From the NCBI GenBank assembly GCA_036507795.1, contig DATCIL010000401.1, forward strand, positions 1 to 42,822: DNA of 42,822 bases, in the 5' to 3' direction. Positions within the stretch are counted from its first letter, which is position 1. Each line of letters opens with the position of its first letter. Shown in pieces: positions 3,100 to 10,566 of the stretch. This DNA comes from Anaerolineales bacterium. Lineage in GTDB: Bacteria; Chloroflexota; Anaerolineae; Anaerolineales; UBA4823. Below the pieces are notes generated by a model, which saw nothing but the letters and a program-made list of their open reading frames with translations, did not search any database and was not told the origin of the DNA. A program made the translations under genes and the position numbers.

Positions 3100-3855
3100 C
3101 TACTGCAATAGACTCAACCAGTAGCGGGCGACGGCGATCAGGAGGATCACTCCCAGCAGGCGGCGCAGATTCGAACCGGAGAGATAACGGGCGCCCAATT
3201 GGCTCCCGCCGAGGGCGCCCAAAAAGCCTACGGGCAGCAGGCTCAGGCCCAGCAGACCCAATTCCATGTTGTTGCCCACCACCCGCCCCAGTACGCCGCT
3301 AAGCGAGTTGACCAGGATGAACGCTGCGGCAGAGGCGGCGGCTTGCTTTGATGTGCCCCAACCGGTTATCACGATGAGCGGGGAAAGAAAGATGCCGCCC
3401 CCGATCCCCAGGATTCCGGAAAGTAGACCGATCACCGCTCCGCTGACCAGGGCTGCCGCCCGGGTCAGGCTAAGGGCCGCCGATGGGTTTTCCTTGAAAA
3501 AGAGCATACGGATGGCGATGTAGGTCAGCGTAATGTAGAGCAGGGCGAAGTAAACATCGGCCTGCACCTGGAGATAACCACCGATGAAGGCAGCCGGAAC
3601 CGAGGTTATCAAGAAAGGCCATAGCAGTTCCGGAACGAAGTGGCGTGCGCGGTAATAAGCTACCAGGGCGATGGCGGAGACCAATATGTTAAGCGCCAGA
3701 GCCGTGCTGGCCATCACCTCGGGCGAAATGGTAAACAGGCTCATGGCAGCCAGGTATCCCGAGGCCCCACCGAAACCGACGCTGGCATAGAGGAAGGCGA
3801 TGGCCAGGACGAACAAGGCCAGGGTGAGCGGGGGCAGATTTTGTGCTTCGATCAA
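3100..3855 (-). CDS. TauE/SafE-family anion (sulfite/sulfonate) exporter, polytopic membrane protein
   Basis: About 8 hydrophobic segments with duplicated G-rich motifs (GFGGASGYL, GIGGGIFLSPL) typical of TauE/SafE. Confidence 0.85.
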   Translation of the reverse strand: MIEAQNLPPLTLALFVLAIAFLYASVGFGGASGYLAAMSLFTISPEVMASTALALNILVSAIALVAYYRARHFVPELLWPFLITSVPAAFIGGYLQVQADVYFALLYITLTYIAIRMLFFKENPSAALSLTRAAALVSGAVIGLLSGILGIGGGIFLSPLIVITGWGTSKQAAASAAAFILVNSLSGVLGRVVGNNMELGLLGLSLLPVGFLGALGGSQLGARYLSGSNLRRLLGVILLIAVARYWLSLLQ

Positions 3856-4001
3856 AGTGTGGCCTCCTGGAAAGCCAGTTTTTTTGCTGCTGAGAAAGCT
3901 TTTGGATTGAACTCCCGCATTTCGCTAACTGCTATGATACCGCATAAGACCGGCGCAGATCGATGAATCCCAGCGAACGATCTAGCGCCGGTGTTTTCTA
4001 T

Positions 4002-4090
4002 AACCGCGAAGTCGCCAAGGAAAAAAGGTTACGCAAAGATTTTTTAGGTTATCCTTTGCGTAACTTGGCGATCTTCGCGTCTTCGCGGTT
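4002..4090. repeat. REP-like imperfect palindrome (AACCGCGAAG...CTTCGCGGTT hairpin)
   Basis: The left arm aaccgcgaagtcgccaagg..ttacgcaaag pairs with the right arm ctttgcgtaacttggcga..cttcgcggtt. It lies 82 nt upstream of the zincin gene. Confidence 0.6.
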
Positions 4091-4171
4091 AAGGGCTGGG
4101 TGTTGAGCGGGTTAACCTGGTTTCGCCAGGAGACAGGCGCGGTTAATCGAAGAATGAGTTAAAATTCGTCC

Positions 4172-6076
4172 ATGTCAATTCATATTTCCTCGCCACCCTT
4201 CAGGCGCCTGCGCGGGTATGCCTTCGATCCCAGTCTTTCCATCCAGCTCGAGACCGTCCCGATCAATGAGGTAGTATTCAAAGTGCCATGGGAGAGAATG
4301 GACATCCTTCAAAAAGGCCCGGTGGGAGAATACCTGGAGGTCGTGGATTATGACCCGGCGAGCCAGTGTTTCTACGAACCCATCGACCTTGATGATCCCT
4401 TAGTGATCGCGCAGGATGGATTATCTCCCTCGGAGGGCAACCCCCAGTTTCACCAGCAAATGGTTTATGCGGTCGCCATGACGACGATCAAGAATTTTGA
4501 ACGCGCCCTGGGGCGGCCGGCCCTATGGGCGCCACGATCGGCACCCGCTACGGCCGATCCGGCAGGCAGCTACGTACCACGACTGCGGATCTATCCCCAC
4601 GCCCTGCGCGAGGCCAACGCATATTACAGCCCGGCAAAAAAAGCGCTCTTGTTCGGTTATTTCCCGGCGACGACCGACCAGCCAGGGATCCAATTCCCTG
4701 GCGGCACAGTGTTTACCTGCCTTTCGCATGACATCGTCGCTCATGAGATCACCCACGCCCTGCTCGATGGCATGCACAGCGGCTTTCTGGAGCCTTCGCA
4801 TCCCGATGTATTCGCCTTCCACGAGGCCTTCGCTGACATTGTCGCCCTTTTCCAGCATTTCAGCTTCCCGGAAGTCCTGGGCCACCAGATCGCCAAGACA
4901 CGCGGCGACCTGGCCAGTCAAAGCCTGCTGGGAGAGCTGGCGCAACAGTTCGGTAAAGCCATCGGCAATTACGGGGCGCTGCGCAACGCCATCGGCCGGG
5001 TAAATCCTGACACTGGTCAGTGGCAGCCACTGCGGCCCGACCCCCAGGAATATCAAAGTGTGCTCGAACCACATGCCCGCGGGGCGATCCTGGTAGCCGC
5101 GGTGTTCGATGCCTTTATTTCTATTTATAAGACCCGCGTGGCCGATCTGCTGCGCATCGCCACCAGCGGAACCGGTGTTTTGCCGGAAGGCTCAATCCAC
5201 CCCGACCTGGTTAACCGCCTTTCGCAGGAGGCTGCCAAATCCGCCCAGCACGTCCTGACGATGTGCATCCGGGCATTGGATTACTGCCCGCCGTTTGATA
5301 TGACGTTCGGAGATTATTTGCGCGCCTTGATCACGGCAGACTCGGATATTGTCCCCAATGATGACCGGGGCTACCGGGTCTCCTTCATTGAATCCTTCCG
5401 CCGCCGAGGAATTTACCCGCGCGAAGTGCGCACTCTTTCTCTGGACAGCCTCCGCTGGCCGGGCGCGCCGATGCGCAGCGATTTGAGCGGTCTTGAAGCG
5501 CTGGCCATTGGACCGCTGATCGCCAGTATTGGGGAATTTGTCAGCAAAACCCGTTTGATTACAGGACGCCAGGAGCTGTCTGCCGAAACAGAGAAAACCA
5601 TGGCAGCGCTTCATAAGGTAATTGACGAAGGGCTCAGAGATTCCGCCTGGTTCGAGGAATTAAGCGGATTGGCGCTCAGCCGCGATACCCAGATCCCGGG
5701 ACTCGAGACGGATGCGGACGGCGACCCGTTGTTCAAGGTCCACGCCGTAAGGCCGGCGCAGCGAGTCGGTCCGGATGGGAACCTGGAAAACCAGATCATC
5801 ATGTCCCTTGTCCAGAAGCGCCGAGTTCCGCTTTATGAGAGCTCACCGGATTCCCAGAAGTTCCTGTTTAGGGGAGGCGGAACGCTGATCCTGGATCTCG
5901 ATGAACAGACGCTGCGCTACAGCATCACCAAGCCGATCAGTGATGAGCAGCGTTTACAGCGGCAGAGAATTTATCTGCGCGACCAGTCCGGGCGCTCCTT
6001 ACGGGCAACCTATTTCGGCGGGCGGATGTCGGGAGATCAGGCCGAGCCCTTCGCGCTGCTGCATAGGGAATTATGA
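4172..6076 (+). CDS. Cytoplasmic thermolysin-like (Glu-zincin) metallopeptidase with a ~300-aa C-terminal region of unknown function
   Basis: SHDIVAHEITHALLDG (HExxH) is followed about 20 aa later by FHEAFADIV, which parallels the thermolysin NEAxSD third-ligand Glu. I see no signal peptide or TM segment. Length is 634 aa. Confidence 0.8.
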   Translation: MSIHISSPPFRRLRGYAFDPSLSIQLETVPINEVVFKVPWERMDILQKGPVGEYLEVVDYDPASQCFYEPIDLDDPLVIAQDGLSPSEGNPQFHQQMVYAVAMTTIKNFERALGRPALWAPRSAPATADPAGSYVPRLRIYPHALREANAYYSPAKKALLFGYFPATTDQPGIQFPGGTVFTCLSHDIVAHEITHALLDGMHSGFLEPSHPDVFAFHEAFADIVALFQHFSFPEVLGHQIAKTRGDLASQSLLGELAQQFGKAIGNYGALRNAIGRVNPDTGQWQPLRPDPQEYQSVLEPHARGAILVAAVFDAFISIYKTRVADLLRIATSGTGVLPEGSIHPDLVNRLSQEAAKSAQHVLTMCIRALDYCPPFDMTFGDYLRALITADSDIVPNDDRGYRVSFIESFRRRGIYPREVRTLSLDSLRWPGAPMRSDLSGLEALAIGPLIASIGEFVSKTRLITGRQELSAETEKTMAALHKVIDEGLRDSAWFEELSGLALSRDTQIPGLETDADGDPLFKVHAVRPAQRVGPDGNLENQIIMSLVQKRRVPLYESSPDSQKFLFRGGGTLILDLDEQTLRYSITKPISDEQRLQRQRIYLRDQSGRSLRATYFGGRMSGDQAEPFALLHREL

Positions 6077-6161
6077 ATAGAAAATTCACTGGCGGTCAAT
6101 GTTCTTAAAACGTCTAAGACTTTGGTTATTACGGATCTTCGGGAAGTCACAGGAGTCGTTA

Positions 6162-7613
6162 ATGGTAGATCAGAATGAGGCCGGCAAGAAATCTGGCGTT
6201 GCGTCGGTTCGCGTGCGCATGTATCGTCCTGGGCTGGGAGATTGTTTTCTCATCACTTTTCAAACCGAGGAAAAGGATTTTCACATGCTTGTCGACTGCG
6301 GTGTCTTTCTGGGCACCAGCGGTGGGGCGGACCAGATACGAAAAATCGCCCGAGATTTGGCCGCGCAGACTAGCCAGCATCTCGATGTAACAGTTGCCAC
6401 GCACGAGCATTGGGACCACCTGGCAGGGTTTATCTATGCACAGGAAGTTTTTGATGAATTCGAGATCAGCCAGGTATGGCTTGCCTGGACCGAGGACCCG
6501 GCCAATCCACTCGCCCGGCAGCTGCGTGCCGAACAGGAAGCCCACCTGAACGCCCTGCACCTTGCCCTGCAAAACATTAAGGACCAGCTGGGCGATTACG
6601 GATCGGGAATTCAGGAGCTGCTCAATTTCTCCGGTGAGGCCCTGGCTGCCTCTGGAGGCAGATCGACCCGGGCCGCTTTGGAATATCTCGCAAAGCACAA
6701 AAGCGCCAGAATCAAGTATTGTTATCCGGGGAGAAAACCCCTGATCCTTGACGATCTGCCGGGCGTTCGTATCTACGTGCTCGGCCCTCCTGAGGATGAA
6801 ACCCTGATCAAGCACAGCGAGCCCGGCGCATCGGGCGATGAAGTCTATCACGAACTTACCCGCCTCAACCTTTCAAACAGTTTTTTTGCGGCTTTGCCGT
6901 TAGATGCGGAACGCGATCAATACAGCGCCATCCGGGATTTGTCCTTTCCGTTTGACGGGCAATACCGGATATCGCTGGAGGATGCCAGGCAAGATGCTTT
7001 CTTTGGCGAATATTATGGATTCGATGAGGCGAAAAAGAGCGAAAATGCCTGGCGGAGGATCGATACGGACTGGCTGGATCTGGTGGGTGAGCTTGCCTTG
7101 GCGCTCGACAACGACACCAACAACACCAGTCTGGTCCTGGCAATAGAACTGGTCGAGTCCGGCAAAGTTTTGCTCTTCCCCGCCGATGCGCAGGTTGGCA
7201 ACTGGCAGTCCTGGCAGAAGCTCGAGTGGGAAGTGGATTCAGGGAACGGGCAGACGAAAAGGATTCGAGCCAGGGATTTGCTGGAACGGGCGGTGCTGTA
7301 CAAAGTGGGCCATCACGGCAGCCATAACGCGACCCTGCGAGAACTCGGGCTGGAGATGATGACGAGCGATGAGCTGGTGGCAATGATCCCGGTGGATCAG
7401 GAATTCGCCGGGAAGAAGAAGTGGAACATGCCCTTCGATCCATTGCTGCGCCGTTTGAAGGAGAAAACCCGCGGCCGGGTGATCCGCTCAGATTTAGGAA
7501 TTCCTGATGAGCAAGAGCTTCTCTTATCTCCGGCAGAACGCGCCGCTTTTCGCAATACCACGCGAGAAACCGATCTTTTCATCGATTACATCATTTCCGG
7601 TCGGTCCCAATAA
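6162..7613 (+). CDS. Metallo-beta-lactamase-fold hydrolase, ComEC/Rec2-like subtype, with a large internal insertion
   Basis: Motifs ATHEHWDHLAG (HxHxDH), LLFPADAQ and YKVGHHGSHNAT (the HHGS motif of ComEC-type MBL domains). I place the start at 6162 (MVDQ), which follows AGGAG at good spacing. The ORF is open from 6099, so an alternative start exists. Confidence 0.8.
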   Translation: MVDQNEAGKKSGVASVRVRMYRPGLGDCFLITFQTEEKDFHMLVDCGVFLGTSGGADQIRKIARDLAAQTSQHLDVTVATHEHWDHLAGFIYAQEVFDEFEISQVWLAWTEDPANPLARQLRAEQEAHLNALHLALQNIKDQLGDYGSGIQELLNFSGEALAASGGRSTRAALEYLAKHKSARIKYCYPGRKPLILDDLPGVRIYVLGPPEDETLIKHSEPGASGDEVYHELTRLNLSNSFFAALPLDAERDQYSAIRDLSFPFDGQYRISLEDARQDAFFGEYYGFDEAKKSENAWRRIDTDWLDLVGELALALDNDTNNTSLVLAIELVESGKVLLFPADAQVGNWQSWQKLEWEVDSGNGQTKRIRARDLLERAVLYKVGHHGSHNATLRELGLEMMTSDELVAMIPVDQEFAGKKKWNMPFDPLLRRLKEKTRGRVIRSDLGIPDEQELLLSPAERAAFRNTTRETDLFIDYIISGRSQ

Positions 7614-7653
7614 GCGAATTATGCTCCTAAAATAATTACCGCCGCAGCGGTAG

Positions 7654-7740
7654 GGGCGGGTCTGGGCAGGCATATTACCTTTCAAAATCAGCCACTATGC
7701 CGGGCTCCGAAACATTGCTGATCAAGGCGAAGACCCGCCC
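7654..7740. repeat. GC-rich 10-bp inverted repeat enclosing 67 nt (possible terminator or REP)
   Basis: gggcgggtct (7654-7663) is the exact reverse complement of agacccgccc (7731-7740). It begins about 40 nt after the MBL stop. Confidence 0.5.
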
Positions 7741-7902
7741 GGTTCCGCCTGTTCAGAGATTATTTATGTAAATTTCATCATTCGCCGGATCTCTAAGTAT
7801 GCTGAACCATGGGAGGTCTTTTCGACATTGAGATTCTCGTTGCAACTTTCGCCCGAAATCTACGTATACCTGGATAGAAGAAAGCTGAACAGGAGGCGAA
7901 TT

Positions 7903-8088
7903 ATGGGATTGATAAAACTCATCTTGGGATTGATCGGCGGCTTGATTGGGCTGGTTGTTGGCCTGGTCGTCGGTGCTATCGGATTGGTTGTGGGATTGTT
8001 CGGCGCAGTTTTCGGCATTGGAATTGCCGTACTGGTCGGGCTGCTGTTGTTATCTCCGCTGGTTATCCTTTTTTTGTTGGTTTTTTAG
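7903..8088 (+). CDS. 61-aa glycine-zipper hydrophobic membrane micro-protein
   Basis: The ATG is preceded by AGGAGG at a 6-nt spacing. The protein MGLIKLILGLIGGLIGLVVGLVVGAIGLVVGLFGAVFGIGIAVLVG... is almost entirely G/L/V/I, consistent with 2 TM segments. Confidence 0.55.
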   Translation: MGLIKLILGLIGGLIGLVVGLVVGAIGLVVGLFGAVFGIGIAVLVGLLLLSPLVILFLLVF

Positions 8089-8129
8089 ACAGGGCATTCG
8101 CTTGAGTAATCAGGCTAATCTGTCAGCCT

Positions 8130-8170
8130 GAACCGCGAAGGGAAGATAGGCTCCTGAGCCCCTCGCGTTC
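8130..8170. repeat. Short AACCGCGAAG-type hairpin
   Basis: gaaccgcgaaggg ... ccctcgcgttc form imperfect inverted arms. It uses the same word as the element at 4002. Confidence 0.45.
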
Positions 8171-8182
8171 TGGATCGTTCTA

Positions 8183-8213
8183 ACCTTGCCGCCTTTCCCT
8201 ATGGCGGCAAGGT
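8183..8213 (+). terminator. Stem-loop, candidate intrinsic terminator after the micro-ORF
   Basis: A perfect 11-bp stem (accttgccgcc / ggcggcaaggt) with a 9-nt loop. The following T-tract is weak (attt). Confidence 0.4.
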
Positions 8214-8223
8214 ATTTAATGCC

Positions 8224-8332
8224 AGCAATTCTCATTTTGTCATTGCGAGCGCAGCGAAGCAATCTCCTGCATGGCTCGGACGAGATTGCTTCGGCACCGA
8301 CCGCCTCGCAGACACCATAATGAGAATATCTG
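8224..8332. mobile_element. 109-bp palindromic MITE/REP-like element (CATTGCGAGCG...GAAGCAATCTC family) flanked by a 10-bp direct repeat
   Basis: It has terminal inverted repeats (attctcatt / aatgagaat) and an internal hairpin (gcgaagcaatctc / gagattgcttcg). An identical atttaatgcc lies immediately on both sides (8214-8223 and 8333-8342), consistent with a target-site duplication. Confidence 0.6.
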
Positions 8333-8405
8333 ATTTAATGCCCCGTCCCTTGGTCCTGATATAATTTGCTTATTAGACCGATCCTGCTGTCGATAGGCCA
8401 TATTC

Positions 8406-9341
8406 ATGCCTCTTTCCCCTTCCCACCTCCGCGGTGTTGTCCCTGCCGTAGTCACCCCGCTCAACTCCAATGATATACCCGACCTTGAAGCTCTCTACCA
8501 GCACATCCGCGCCCTTATCGAGGAAGGCTGCCATGGAATCTTACTTTTAGGGACTACGGGCGAAGGCACTTCCATGGGGATGGCTGAACGCGAAGCGATC
8601 CTCGAGGCCGGACTGGCAGCTGTGGGTGATGAGTTTGTACTGGTCGGCACCGGCACGCCCAGCCTGACCGATACTATCACGCTCACCCGCCGGGCTTACG
8701 AGTTGGGCGCGGACGTGACGGTAATCCTGCCGCCTTTCTATTACAAGGACGTTGCTGGCCGCGGATTGCTGGATTATTACCGCCGGCTGTTCGCCGAAGC
8801 CGTTCCGGATGATGGTCTGGTGATGGTCTACCACATCCCGCAAGTCACCCAGGTGCCGATCTCTTTCAACCTGCTTGAGGATCTTGTCAGCGTCTCGGAT
8901 GGTCGCCTGGTCGGTGTTAAAGATAGCTCCGGCGATCCAGAACACGCCAAAGAACTGTGCCGCCGCTTCCCGGATATGAACGTCTTTGTGGGCAGCGATA
9001 GGCTGCTCCTGGCCGGCCTGGAGCTGGGGGCGGACGGCTGTATCACAGCCGGGGCTAACGTACTGGGACCGCTGGCCGTCGATGTGTACCGGGCCTACGC
9101 AACCGGCGACCCGGCCGATCCTCTGCAAGGACGCTTGACCGCGGCGCGGCTGGTCTTTGAGCGTTACCAGCCCTTTCCCGCCGCCCTGAAGAGCTTGCTC
9201 GCCCTGCGCTACGGTGGGGATAGCTGGAATGTGCGCCCGCCCCTCACTCCGCTTTCGGACAGCGATCGAGCCGAACTTCTTTCGGCACTACGAAGCCTTA
9301 ATCTCGAAAACAAACTTCCCTGGCTTGCAGACCTCGACTGA
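8406..9341 (+). CDS. DHDPS/NAL-family class I aldolase (DapA-like; possibly a 4-hydroxy-2-oxoglutarate or similar pyruvate aldolase)
   Basis: Motifs VVTPL, GTTGEG, YHIP (the YxxP Tyr) and GVKDSSGD (Schiff-base Lys). Confidence 0.88.
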   Translation: MPLSPSHLRGVVPAVVTPLNSNDIPDLEALYQHIRALIEEGCHGILLLGTTGEGTSMGMAEREAILEAGLAAVGDEFVLVGTGTPSLTDTITLTRRAYELGADVTVILPPFYYKDVAGRGLLDYYRRLFAEAVPDDGLVMVYHIPQVTQVPISFNLLEDLVSVSDGRLVGVKDSSGDPEHAKELCRRFPDMNVFVGSDRLLLAGLELGADGCITAGANVLGPLAVDVYRAYATGDPADPLQGRLTAARLVFERYQPFPAALKSLLALRYGGDSWNVRPPLTPLSDSDRAELLSALRSLNLENKLPWLADLD

Positions 9342-9348
9342 GTTCATT

Positions 9349-9404
9349 ACGTTTTACGCATCACGCACTACGCAATACGCAACACGCAATACGCATCACG
9401 TATT
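9349..9404. repeat. Heptamer tandem repeat, ACGNNNN x8 (longest tract in the window)
   Basis: acgtttt acgcatc acgcact acgcaat acgcaac acgcaat acgcatc acgtatt. It lies between two co-directional genes. Confidence 0.92.
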
Positions 9405-9432
9405 CATATCCCGAAAGGAGATCCCCCTCACC

Positions 9433-10566
9433 ATGTCTACCCATGCTGACCTTTCCAACTACCCTGAACTCGACGCTCCGGCCCGGGTTTTACTTGGTCC
9501 CGGCCCCAGCCTGGTGCATCCCAAAGTGCTGCGGGCAATGGCGACCCCGCTGGTAGGGCACCTGGATCCTTACTTTATTCAACTGATGGATCACATCCAG
9601 GACCAGCTGCGCTATGTATTTGAGACACAAAATGCACTTACCATCCCAATTTCCGGAACAGGCAGCGCCGCGATGGAGGCCGCCGTCGCCAATATGGTGG
9701 AGCCTGGCGATGCCGTGCTGGTGTGTATCAATGGTTATTTTGGCGGGCGAATTGCCGAAATGGCACGGCGTTACGGCGGGAGCGTAAAGACTATCCAACG
9801 TCCGTGGGGGGAAGTGTTTACAGCAGATGAAGTCAGGCGGGCCTTGAATGATCACCCCAGCAAAGTCGTGGCGATTGTGCACGCCGAAACCTCAACCGGC
9901 GCGCAGCAGCCTCTGGATGAAATCGCCAGGCTTGTGCATGATCAGGGCGGCGTTCTCATCGTCGATGCGGTCACCTCGCTGGGTGGCCTTCCCGTGCGCG
10001 TCGATGAAGTGGACATCGACGTTTGTTACAGTGGTTCGCAGAAATGCCTGAGCTGCCCGCCGGGGTTGGGCCCGATAACCCTGAACGCCCGCGCTGAGGA
10101 AGTCCTGCGCCGGAGGAAAACACCGGTGGCGAACTGGTATCTGGATCTCTCCATCGTGCAGAAATATTGGGGCTCAGAGCGGACTTACCATCACACGGCC
10201 CCGATATCCGCAAATTTTGCGCTTTATGAGGGATTGCGTTTGGTTGCAGAGGAAGGTCTGGAAAACCGCTGGGCGCGGCACCGCAAGAACGCCGAGCTGC
10301 TCTGGGAAGGTTTAGGGGATCTGGATCTCACCCTGCACGTGCCGGAAGCGAACCGTCTGACGACCCTGACCACCGTCCGCGTCCCTGAGGGTGTGGATGA
10401 ATTAACGATACGCCGGCGGCTGCTTGAGGAATATAATATTGAGATCGCAGGTGGCTTAGGGGAGCTTAAGGGCAAAATCTGGCGGATTGGATTGATGGGC
10501 TACTCCTCCCGCCCAGAAAATGTTCTCTTGTTATTGGCTGCCCTGGGGAGGCTGCTTTACCAATAA
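9433..10566 (+). CDS. Class V aminotransferase, alanine-glyoxylate / serine-pyruvate aminotransferase-like
   Basis: LLGPGPS...HP.VL.AM at the N-terminus, SGTGSAAMEA, and YSGSQKCL (PLP Lys). I place the start at 9433, after GAAAGGAG. The track ORF from 9214 merely reads through the heptamer tract. Confidence 0.9.
   Translation: MSTHADLSNYPELDAPARVLLGPGPSLVHPKVLRAMATPLVGHLDPYFIQLMDHIQDQLRYVFETQNALTIPISGTGSAAMEAAVANMVEPGDAVLVCINGYFGGRIAEMARRYGGSVKTIQRPWGEVFTADEVRRALNDHPSKVVAIVHAETSTGAQQPLDEIARLVHDQGGVLIVDAVTSLGGLPVRVDEVDIDVCYSGSQKCLSCPPGLGPITLNARAEEVLRRRKTPVANWYLDLSIVQKYWGSERTYHHTAPISANFALYEGLRLVAEEGLENRWARHRKNAELLWEGLGDLDLTLHVPEANRLTTLTTVRVPEGVDELTIRRRLLEEYNIEIAGGLGELKGKIWRIGLMGYSSRPENVLLLLAALGRLLYQ

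Follow-up and report, generated by a model that had tools for sequence, protein, structure and literature searches.

A paired zincin-motif protein and metallo-β-lactamase-fold hydrolase as a candidate protease-licensed nuclease module of bacteria and archaea

Contig DATCIL010000401.1 of an Anaerolineales bacterium (assembly GCA_036507795.1; the 42,822 nucleotides analysed here are called the window) carries two adjacent genes that raise a simple question: why would a protein with the motif of a zinc protease be encoded next to one with the motifs of a metallo-β-lactamase (MBL) hydrolase, and what might the two do together? Gene A (4172–6076, forward strand) encodes a cytoplasmic protein of 634 aa, a predicted gluzincin-type metalloprotease with candidate sensor or regulatory domains at its N- and C-termini. 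Gene B (6162–7613, forward strand) encodes a ComEC-type MBL-fold hydrolase of 483 aa, predicted to be a latent (zymogen) DNase. A preliminary description of this DNA, made from the letters alone, had taken the pair for an undescribed two-gene conflict or defence module. Both open reading frames (ORFs) were recovered with the motifs it had listed, HEITH and EAFAD in A and HEHWDH, FPADAQ and HHGS in B.

We put at about one half the probability that the two genes make up an abortive-infection module that is complete in itself, directed against phages or mobile elements and of the protease-licensed zymogen-nuclease type. In such a module, B would be an inactive ComEC-like MBL DNase when made, with two insertions that break up its catalytic core and presumably cover the active site. 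A would be a cytoplasmic zinc metalloprotease, held latent by its N- and C-terminal non-catalytic domains until an infection cue. After the cue A would cut the insertion loops of B, and cleaved B would degrade DNA indiscriminately, so that the infected cell is killed or arrested. Both sensing and autoinhibition would, in this two-gene form, be supplied by the non-catalytic domains of A. The protease activity of A, its action on B, the autoinhibition and DNase activity of B, the role of the pair in phage defence and the nature of the trigger are all inferred.

Co-inheritance of A and B

B lies directly 3' of A, on the same strand, in 78 of the 80 reference-genome loci that were seeded with A, and the two exceptions are loci that end at a contig edge. 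The gap between the genes ranges from −66 to 308 nt in the reference loci and is 85 nt in the window with the B start at 6162. Such loci occur in Acidobacteriota, Chloroflexota, Bacteroidota, several proteobacterial classes, Gemmatimonadota, Planctomycetota, Armatimonadota and Spirochaetota, and in two archaea, one Methanotrichaceae (seeded with A) and one Methanosarcinales (seeded with B). A is also upstream of B in all four loci seeded with B and in all eight plasmid loci; the B-seeded search yielded four loci only, the back-translated patterns being poor.

Pairwise distances within the two families co-vary (Pearson 0.75, Mantel p ≤ 0.001), and A is the more conserved partner (mean pairwise distance 0.44, versus 0.60 for B). 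Homologues number in the thousands for each gene. More than 8000 were found for A, whose family comprises 4,444 clusters at 50% identity in an exhaustive search (E ≤ 1e-3). The distribution of the pair is patchy across phyla, archaea included, and its flanks are variable. No gene besides B is universally linked to A in the 80 loci, nor did these reveal a conserved metabolic or competence neighbourhood. The adjacency first noticed in this one contig is strictly kept across phyla.

Gene B and its insertions

The reading frame of B is open from 6099, and its most likely start is at 6162, because AGGAG lies 7 nt upstream and homologues are about 480–483 aa long (a 97%-identical one has 483 aa). 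Positions from here on refer to the forward strand, on which all features of A and B lie. MBL motif 2 (HEHWDH, 6402–6419) holds the invariant residues H81, H83, D85 and H86, and HxHxDH is present in 120 of 120 B homologues. The segment from motif 4 (FPADAQ, with D342) through motif 5 (HHGS, with H384 and H385, nt 7311–7322) spans 7176–7322; D342 and HHGS are likewise invariant.

Pfam gives a marginal match to the N-terminus of Lactamase_B and no other domain in B. The fold is more informative. In Foldseek, the AlphaFold2 (AF2) model of B (predicted local distance difference test, pLDDT, 81; predicted template modelling score, pTM, 0.81) is best matched by the ComEC MBL nuclease domain 9ic4 (E 5.9e-10, template modelling score 0.73, target-normalised), followed by Pce, the pneumococcal phosphorylcholine esterase, and then by beta-CASP and RNase J nucleases, namely CPSF73, INTS11 and RNase J. 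The earlier assignment of B to the ComEC type is therefore upheld. Like the ComEC/Rec2 MBL domain, B has HxHxDH and HHGS; unlike ComEC/Rec2, it is a soluble stand-alone protein that lacks the DUF4131 and Competence membrane domains and any transmembrane segment.

Models built for defence proteins match B better than Pfam does. Among PADLOC models these are LmuA-MBL (1.2e-14), Avs1a (3.6e-6), RTasMBL (DRT; 5.5e-6) and also PDC-M48B, and among NCBIfam models Avs1a and 6A-MBL. The matches are N-terminal only and far below the curated full-length cut-offs, so B is a distant branch of the defence MBLs and not an equivalog. Profile comparison (hhalign) of the B family with EpiAvs1a, whose sequence was taken from the supplement of PMC12799240, gave a probability of 93.8% and an alignment up to the 'VW' strand. 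When B was aligned by MAFFT with EpiAvs1a and three neighbouring LmuA-/PDC-M48B-type MBLs, a common order of anchors emerged: GD, LIDGG, HxHxDH, VW, LGPP/LSPS, TN(N/G)(T/S)S, DA and HHGS. These alignments place B in the lineage of defence MBL pro-nucleases (HamM/Avs1a/LmuA-MBL/CanC), as a distant branch.

The catalytic core of B had been described as split by a single insertion of about 250 aa, and instead contains two. Insertion 1 (residues ~112–200, 6495–6761) is a candidate gating loop with a candidate cleavage site, and insertion 2 (residues ~210–322, 6789–7127), mostly of low confidence, is a candidate second gating loop. Their pLDDT ranges from 37 to 83, and the model has its lowest-confidence segments there. 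In insertion 1 a conserved loop, L154-x-F156-x-G158, adjoins a segment with pLDDT <50; the conserved islands of insertion 2 are E227-V-Y229, P263-F264 and W297-R298. Motif 2 and HHGS are 303 residues apart in B, compared to 238 in Avs1a and about 127 in the 9ic4 ComEC domain, so that B has about 175 extra residues relative to the latter. In the MAFFT alignment both insertions fall at anchor positions equivalent to those of Avs1a and the LmuA-like MBLs, and the L154-x-F156-x-G158 island aligns just before a common '(A/S)LAAS' segment. This region is the location of the mapped cleavage site of Avs1a, I134 in insertion 1 (PMC12799240).

A mechanism for such proteins has been published. HamM, Avs1a and CanC are pro-nucleases whose active site is blocked by two insertions, and cleavage of these insertions by a partner protease produces an indiscriminate DNase (Tuck et al., Science 2025, PMC12799240). 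Independently, VcMBL and AtMBL were shown to become Zn-dependent double-stranded DNA nucleases once cut at two sites (Evans et al., bioRxiv 2025.11.14.688446, PMC12642450). Across both surveys the partner proteases fall into exactly three classes: trypsin-like, caspase/CHAT and S8 subtilisin-like (PMC12799240; PMC12642450). Neither Tuck et al. nor Evans et al. mentions a metalloprotease partner, the A domain or an HExxH motif, and literature searches, made with protein accessions and with terms for metalloproteases and MBLs, brought up no earlier description of the A–B pair. A appears to belong to a fourth kind of MBL-activating protease that has not been described so far. The word undescribed, which the preliminary description had applied to the whole module, holds for the A domain and the metalloprotease partner; the class of enzyme to which B belongs, and protease licensing as a principle, were both published in 2025. 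The novelty lies in a partner family with the zincin motif but without annotation or structural relative, in a two-gene form that looks sensor-less, and in the breadth of the pair across bacteria and archaea.

We compared the pair with HamMAB (HamM/protease-HamA), Avs1a/Avs1b, LmuA-MBL and DRT UG9-MBL (PMC12799240; bioRxiv 2025.11.14.688446; bioRxiv 2025.09.03.673762, Huang et al.). Like the MBLs of these modules, B is ComEC-like, with equal core anchors and two insertions in equivalent places. Like them too, it adjoins a co-inherited putative protease, has copies in defence islands and on plasmids, and has a STAND-fused partner in one form. The differences are also clear. The partner in HamMAB and Avs1 is a trypsin-like serine protease, whereas that of B is a zincin-motif protein, and the protease gene lies downstream of the nuclease gene in HamMAB/Avs1-type modules but upstream in A–B. 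Most A–B loci, including the window, have no known sensor (HamAB, STAND, LmuB or reverse transcriptase) of the sort found in the four systems. Compared with Avs1a, B has about 90 more residues and a much longer insertion 2. Its insertions have no sequence in common with the published gating loops, whose conserved Ile cut sites are not evident in B. In gene order the closer parallel is Canu (CanABC, PMC12799240), where a stand-alone protease gene also precedes the gene of an MBL pro-nuclease; A–B resembles it in standing outside previously named defence systems and in having variable loci with extra genes. However, the Canu protease is a caspase/CHAT protein with an Ig-like domain and requires CanB, whereas A is a putative metalloprotease and its loci have no conserved third gene.

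Gene A as the candidate licensing protease

The catalytic signature of A, H191-E-x-x-H195 ... E218-x-x-x-D222, lies at 4742–4837, with HEITH at nt 4742–4756 (within AHEITHALLDG), EAFAD at nt 4823–4837 (within FHEAFADIV) and 22 residues between H195 and E218. H191, E192, H195, E218 and D222 are invariant in the A-family alignment. The motif HExxH...ExxxD is present in all 120 homologous proteins, 119 of them with identical spacing, and in all 92 loci; kept in this way with a near-fixed spacing, it is more than a chance occurrence. In the AF2 model of A (pLDDT 74, pTM 0.84) the motif sits on two successive predicted helices (186–201 and 211–230) that follow a three-strand sheet (138–162). This strand-strand-strand-helix-helix order is the generic topology of a zincin core, and the model is compatible with such a core. 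The rest of the protein, comprising an N-terminal region of about 130 aa and a C-terminal domain (~440–605) built of a helical part and a four-strand sheet, has no family assignment.

VAHEITHA...FHEAFADIV resembles the generally known gluzincin signatures of the thermolysin (M4), neprilysin (M13) and ACE (M2) types, which we take as a lead and not as membership. As in those enzymes, HExxH is followed 20–24 residues on, in the next helix, by ExxxD. Unlike them, A is cytoplasmic and has neither pro-peptide nor signal peptide, and most of its 634 residues have no counterpart in them; profile, PDB-sequence and Foldseek searches matched A to none of them. A had no match in Pfam, NCBIfam or PADLOC v2, and Pfam searches with 40 of its homologues gave nothing significant even at E ≤ 10. 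Neither a PDB sequence search (phmmer) nor a profile search returned a match, and Foldseek with the model of A returned none in PDB or BFVD at E <0.1; NTF2/SnoaL-like matches to the C-terminal sheet had a probability <0.4 and were not relied on. "Thermolysin-like", as A had been called, is apt for the motif and not for the family. With A unmatched and B matched weakly and N-terminally, the pair fits no named system of PADLOC v2 or NCBIfam, as had been supposed.

Could A be a secreted peptidase with a missed start or a hidden signal peptide? An in-frame TAA at 4160 precedes the ATG of A, so that no upstream start is possible, and hydropathy likewise rules this reading out. No transmembrane segment or signal peptide was found in A or B (highest 19-residue Kyte-Doolittle mean 1.47 in both), in agreement with the intracellular location first proposed.

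At its C-terminus A ends in a conserved tail of low confidence (residues 606–634, 5987–6073, SLRATYF...EPFALLHR, pLDDT <50), in which A628 and H631 are invariant and T613, Y614, F615, E625, P626, F627 and L630 nearly so. The tail might serve as an autoinhibitory or docking peptide, and it is also retained in fusions of A to an S8 subtilase.

These fusions are one of several architectural variants of A. About a third of the top 150 A representatives are ~1,200 aa long, with A in the C-terminal half; of eight long representatives tested, five carry Peptidase_S8 in the N-terminal part and one an nSTAND1 NTPase. S8–A fusions were located at 6726–9824 of locus L085, 2278–5859 of L082 and 5168–8860 of L090, and in proteins P0253, P0258, P0263, P0255 and P0317, the last of which is an S8–A–GDPD protein with a C-terminal GDPD phosphodiesterase domain. 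An upstream open frame of >120 aa before A is present in 7 of the 92 loci, among them the S8 fusions of L082, L085 and L090 and a tandem A' copy in L050; those of L026 and L044 look spurious. Tandem or fused A'–A paralogues, about 44% identical to each other, stand ahead of B at L093 6333–13601 and L094 1623–12991, and the order in L093 is patatin, A'–A, MBL and Lipase_3 (a class-3 lipase), with a Trypsin_2 gene on the opposite strand. A proteins of 900–1100 aa, considered as possible A–B fusions, proved to be tandem A'–A duplications or S8 or STAND N-terminal fusions, which rules out that reading.

The S8 fusions suggest another division of labour within the same defence module, in which A would not license B. 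It would instead serve as an adaptor, scaffold or sensor, or would cleave proteins of the host or phage as an effector in its own right, and B would be activated by another protease (the S8 domain, where one is fused) or, in place of cleavage, by binding or oligomerisation. Fusions are common (five of the eight long representatives, and loci L082, L085 and L090) and have an intact S8 triad, the published surveys tie MBL clades to S8 proteases, and the ~300 non-catalytic residues of A, which have no fold match, could belong to a sensor or scaffold. However, HExxH...ExxxD is invariant with or without a fused S8 domain. The fusion of Methylobacterium extorquens keeps both the S8 triad and HExxH...ExxxD, so S8 adds to the zincin motif; that it replaces the motif is ruled out. 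S8–A fusions may form a two-protease cascade. Furthermore, most loci, including the window, have no other protease nearby, so if B needs cleavage, A is the sole candidate there. We regard a role for A other than licensing as unlikely and favour A as the activating protease.

The fusions also connect the pair with published work. An uncharacterised subtilase/S8 MBL clade appears in both 2025 surveys (fig. S2 of Tuck et al.; 'Clade 3' of Evans et al.). The MBLs beside the S8–A fusions of L082, L085 and L090 are members of the B family, 41–43% identical to B of the window. By this identity the published S8–MBL clade is probably the S8-fused minority of the A–B family; A of the window, unlike that clade, has no S8 domain. 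A different fusion is found in P0262 (JGI 3300047160 contig), where an nSTAND1–A gene (4272–7610) is followed by a 466-aa Lactamase_B gene (7750–9150). By analogy, this layout reproduces the logic of Avs1 with A in the protease slot.

A bolder possibility, which we hold tentatively and below even odds, is that A is the founding member of a class of intracellular zinc proteases not yet recognised by structure, which sense infection and license a zymogen DNase within one polypeptide, perhaps along with patatin, lipase or GDPD effectors in expanded loci. A–B would then be the minimal core of a very widespread immune module of bacteria and archaea that has so far come to notice through its S8-fused minority alone, the published S8–MBL clade would be built around A, and the EPFALLHR tail would be a possible autoinhibitory switch.

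In 2025 the proteolytic licensing of latent death effectors came to light as a dominant logic of prokaryotic immunity; the activators known so far are serine and cysteine proteases. If A is a licensing protease, metalloproteases would be a fourth catalytic class, and the MBL zymogen would have been captured by yet another protease lineage. Defence-prediction pipelines currently miss the A family, which has no Pfam, NCBIfam or PADLOC annotation; once named, it would give an annotation to thousands of gene pairs now listed as 'hypothetical protein' and 'MBL fold metallo-hydrolase' in bacteria of soil and rhizosphere, among them pairs on Rhizobium and Agrobacterium plasmids. A two-gene form with no recognisable sensor also raises the question of how a protease alone senses infection. 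The pair might also be of use as a tool: provided that B is a tightly gated DNase and that a defined metalloprotease triggers it, A–B would be a candidate orthogonal protease-to-nuclease switch.

Genomic contexts elsewhere and in the window

Homologues of A were found on 64 PLSDB plasmids, 35 of them conjugative, and five of the seven annotated plasmid A–B loci contain named defence genes. Rhizobium leguminosarum pRle248a carries ImmA/HTH, a CBASS cyclase, patatin–A–B and then Hachiman HamA/HamB, and Agrobacterium tumefaciens pAtH25_79a carries patatin–A–B followed by HamA/HamB. In R. rhizogenes, CBASS with SAVED precedes patatin–A–B, which is followed by an AAA ATPase and an HNH protein. The S8–A fusion and MBL of M. 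extorquens pCMU01 lie between two SIR2 genes and IS5; in Hymenobacter volaticus an SMC-like ATPase immediately precedes the pair, and JAB/MPN, WYL and a further MBL follow it; and in Mesorhizobium, insertion sequence (IS) elements flank A–B on both sides (IS630 and IS110 are among the mobile contexts recorded). Locus L048 (Flavisolibacter) has an integrase, patatin–A–B, an MBL of the PDC-M48B/LmuA type and an E2–E1–JAB protein. Septu-like genes are also among the island companions of plasmid copies. The defence-island context is clear on plasmids and weak in metagenome-assembled genomes (MAGs) and chromosomal loci. Together with the defence MBL models that match B and the STAND fusion of A, the plasmid islands strengthen the inference of a conflict role that the preliminary description had drawn from an intracellular protease encoded next to a putative nuclease/hydrolase.

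A-family sequences also occur on phage contigs. The zincin core (residues 133–320, 30% identity) was found in LR756511.1 (539335–539892), a 595-kb uncultured phage, and a near full-length homologue (41% identity) in MT836994.1 (4312–5883), a 9.5-kb 'Bacteriophage sp.' contig.

As a side observation, other defence-type MBLs adjoin A–B in some loci, with matches to PDC-M48B (up to E 1.6e-149) and LmuA-type MBL (1.9e-58). They are accompanied by E2–E1–JAB/MPN proteins or by a 991-aa unknown protein, such that several MBL-based systems cluster (L048 13509–17811; L058 13832–14902; L059 13831–14901; L087 11360–17576; L035 3456–7658).

The sole recurrent neighbour of A–B is a patatin-like phospholipase, present in 17 of the 80 loci, usually directly upstream and on the same strand, and absent from the window. 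Patatin adjoins the pair in L008, L010, L014, L032, L035, L036, L047, L048, L056, L058, L059, L066, L068, L072, L076 and L078, and stands beside it on Rhizobiaceae plasmids (L086 6815–7957; L088 5815–6957; L089 5822–6955). In roughly 20% of loci the patatin gene adjoins A–B in the same orientation, and its product may act as a second effector of the module. It is unlikely to be a stray CBASS effector, since on pRle248a its gene is 11 nt from A but 263 nt away from those of CBASS, and patatin is found repeatedly in loci with no cyclase.

This recurrence of lipid enzymes, seen also in Lipase_3 and in the GDPD domain fused to S8–A, raises the alternative that B attacks the membrane or envelope. 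In that case B would act as a phosphodiesterase, with head groups of the phospholipid or teichoic-acid type as its substrates, and would work with lipid hydrolases either in a set of death effectors or in lipid turnover. Its second-best fold match, Pce, is in keeping with this. However, the best fold match is the ComEC nuclease domain, with CPSF73, INTS11 and RNase J next after Pce, and by sequence B is related to Avs and Hachiman proteins with experimentally proven DNase activity. Defence systems often contain patatin and lipases as parallel effectors, and 61 of the 80 loci have no lipid enzyme beside A–B. A lipid substrate for B is therefore very improbable in our judgement, and a latent DNase remains the preferred assignment.

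Several points weigh against a protease-licensed defence module. A has no detectable kinship to any peptidase family by hidden Markov models, PDB profile or Foldseek, and with no profile or fold match it is a short motif that suggests a protease. Many relatives of A are fused to an apparently active S8 subtilase that could be the real activating protease. The published gating loops are shorter and less structured than the insertions of B, and the two have no sequence in common. At 50–65% identity across phyla, A is unusually conserved for an immune protein. Every neighbour of A–B in the window is a housekeeping gene, and about 4–5% (raw share) of 238 immediate neighbours in MAG and chromosomal loci match PADLOC models.

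The last points would suit an accessory pair outside immunity that happens to travel on mobile DNA. Its role would be housekeeping or physiological, for example in the salvage of DNA or protein, in stress-induced turnover or in processing related to competence. Ordinary metabolic neighbours in the window and in most MAG loci, the strong conservation of A and the fact that no PADLOC or NCBIfam defence model covers it all favour such a role. Against it, the pair has no conserved metabolic or competence neighbourhood and a patchy distribution across phyla that extends to archaea. Some copies are on conjugative plasmids, some have integrases or IS elements as neighbours, and some share islands with genes of CBASS, Hachiman and SIR2 and with Septu-like genes. 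One relative has a STAND NTPase fused to A, and the nearest characterised relatives of B are all immune effectors. We consider a purely physiological role quite improbable and retain abortive infection as the preferred function.

In the window itself, the genes around A–B encode a cyclic-nucleotide-binding SpoIIE phosphatase, a metallophosphoesterase, a histidine phosphatase, a TauE protein, a DHDPS-family aldolase and a class-V aminotransferase; the TauE and aldolase genes had been named correctly from the outset. For the question of an insertion of A–B into this genome, the flanking DHDPS gene was compared with the reference set, which contained no close relative (best match 40% identical). 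The phosphatase gene at 430–1668 fuses a cyclic-nucleotide-binding domain to a SpoIIE/PP2C phosphatase and lies beside the metallophosphoesterase and histidine phosphatase genes; no link to A–B was seen. Just 3' of B, an 86-aa ORF (7828–8088) encodes an extremely G/L/V/I-rich hydrophobic peptide that has no Pfam match and is not among the neighbour families recurring across A–B loci.

Two minor observations concern a single locus elsewhere. In L083 the match to B is in two pieces (3224–4087 and 6001–6459), about 1.9 kb apart, and the gene may be interrupted. An open frame in the same locus (349–1290) resembles an Amidase_2/PGRP domain and runs into the start of A.

Finally, inverted repeats flank the pair in the window, as had been described. 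Downstream of B is a 10-nt perfect inverted repeat (7654–7740; arms 7654–7663 and 7731–7740, 67 nt apart). Upstream, in the 316-nt gap between A and the divergent TauE gene, is an imperfect hairpin (4001–4091) with 38-nt arms (4001–4038 and 4054–4091) that are 76% complementary and enclose a 15-nt loop. The label of a repetitive extragenic palindromic (REP) element is not supported for this hairpin, which is single copy within the window.

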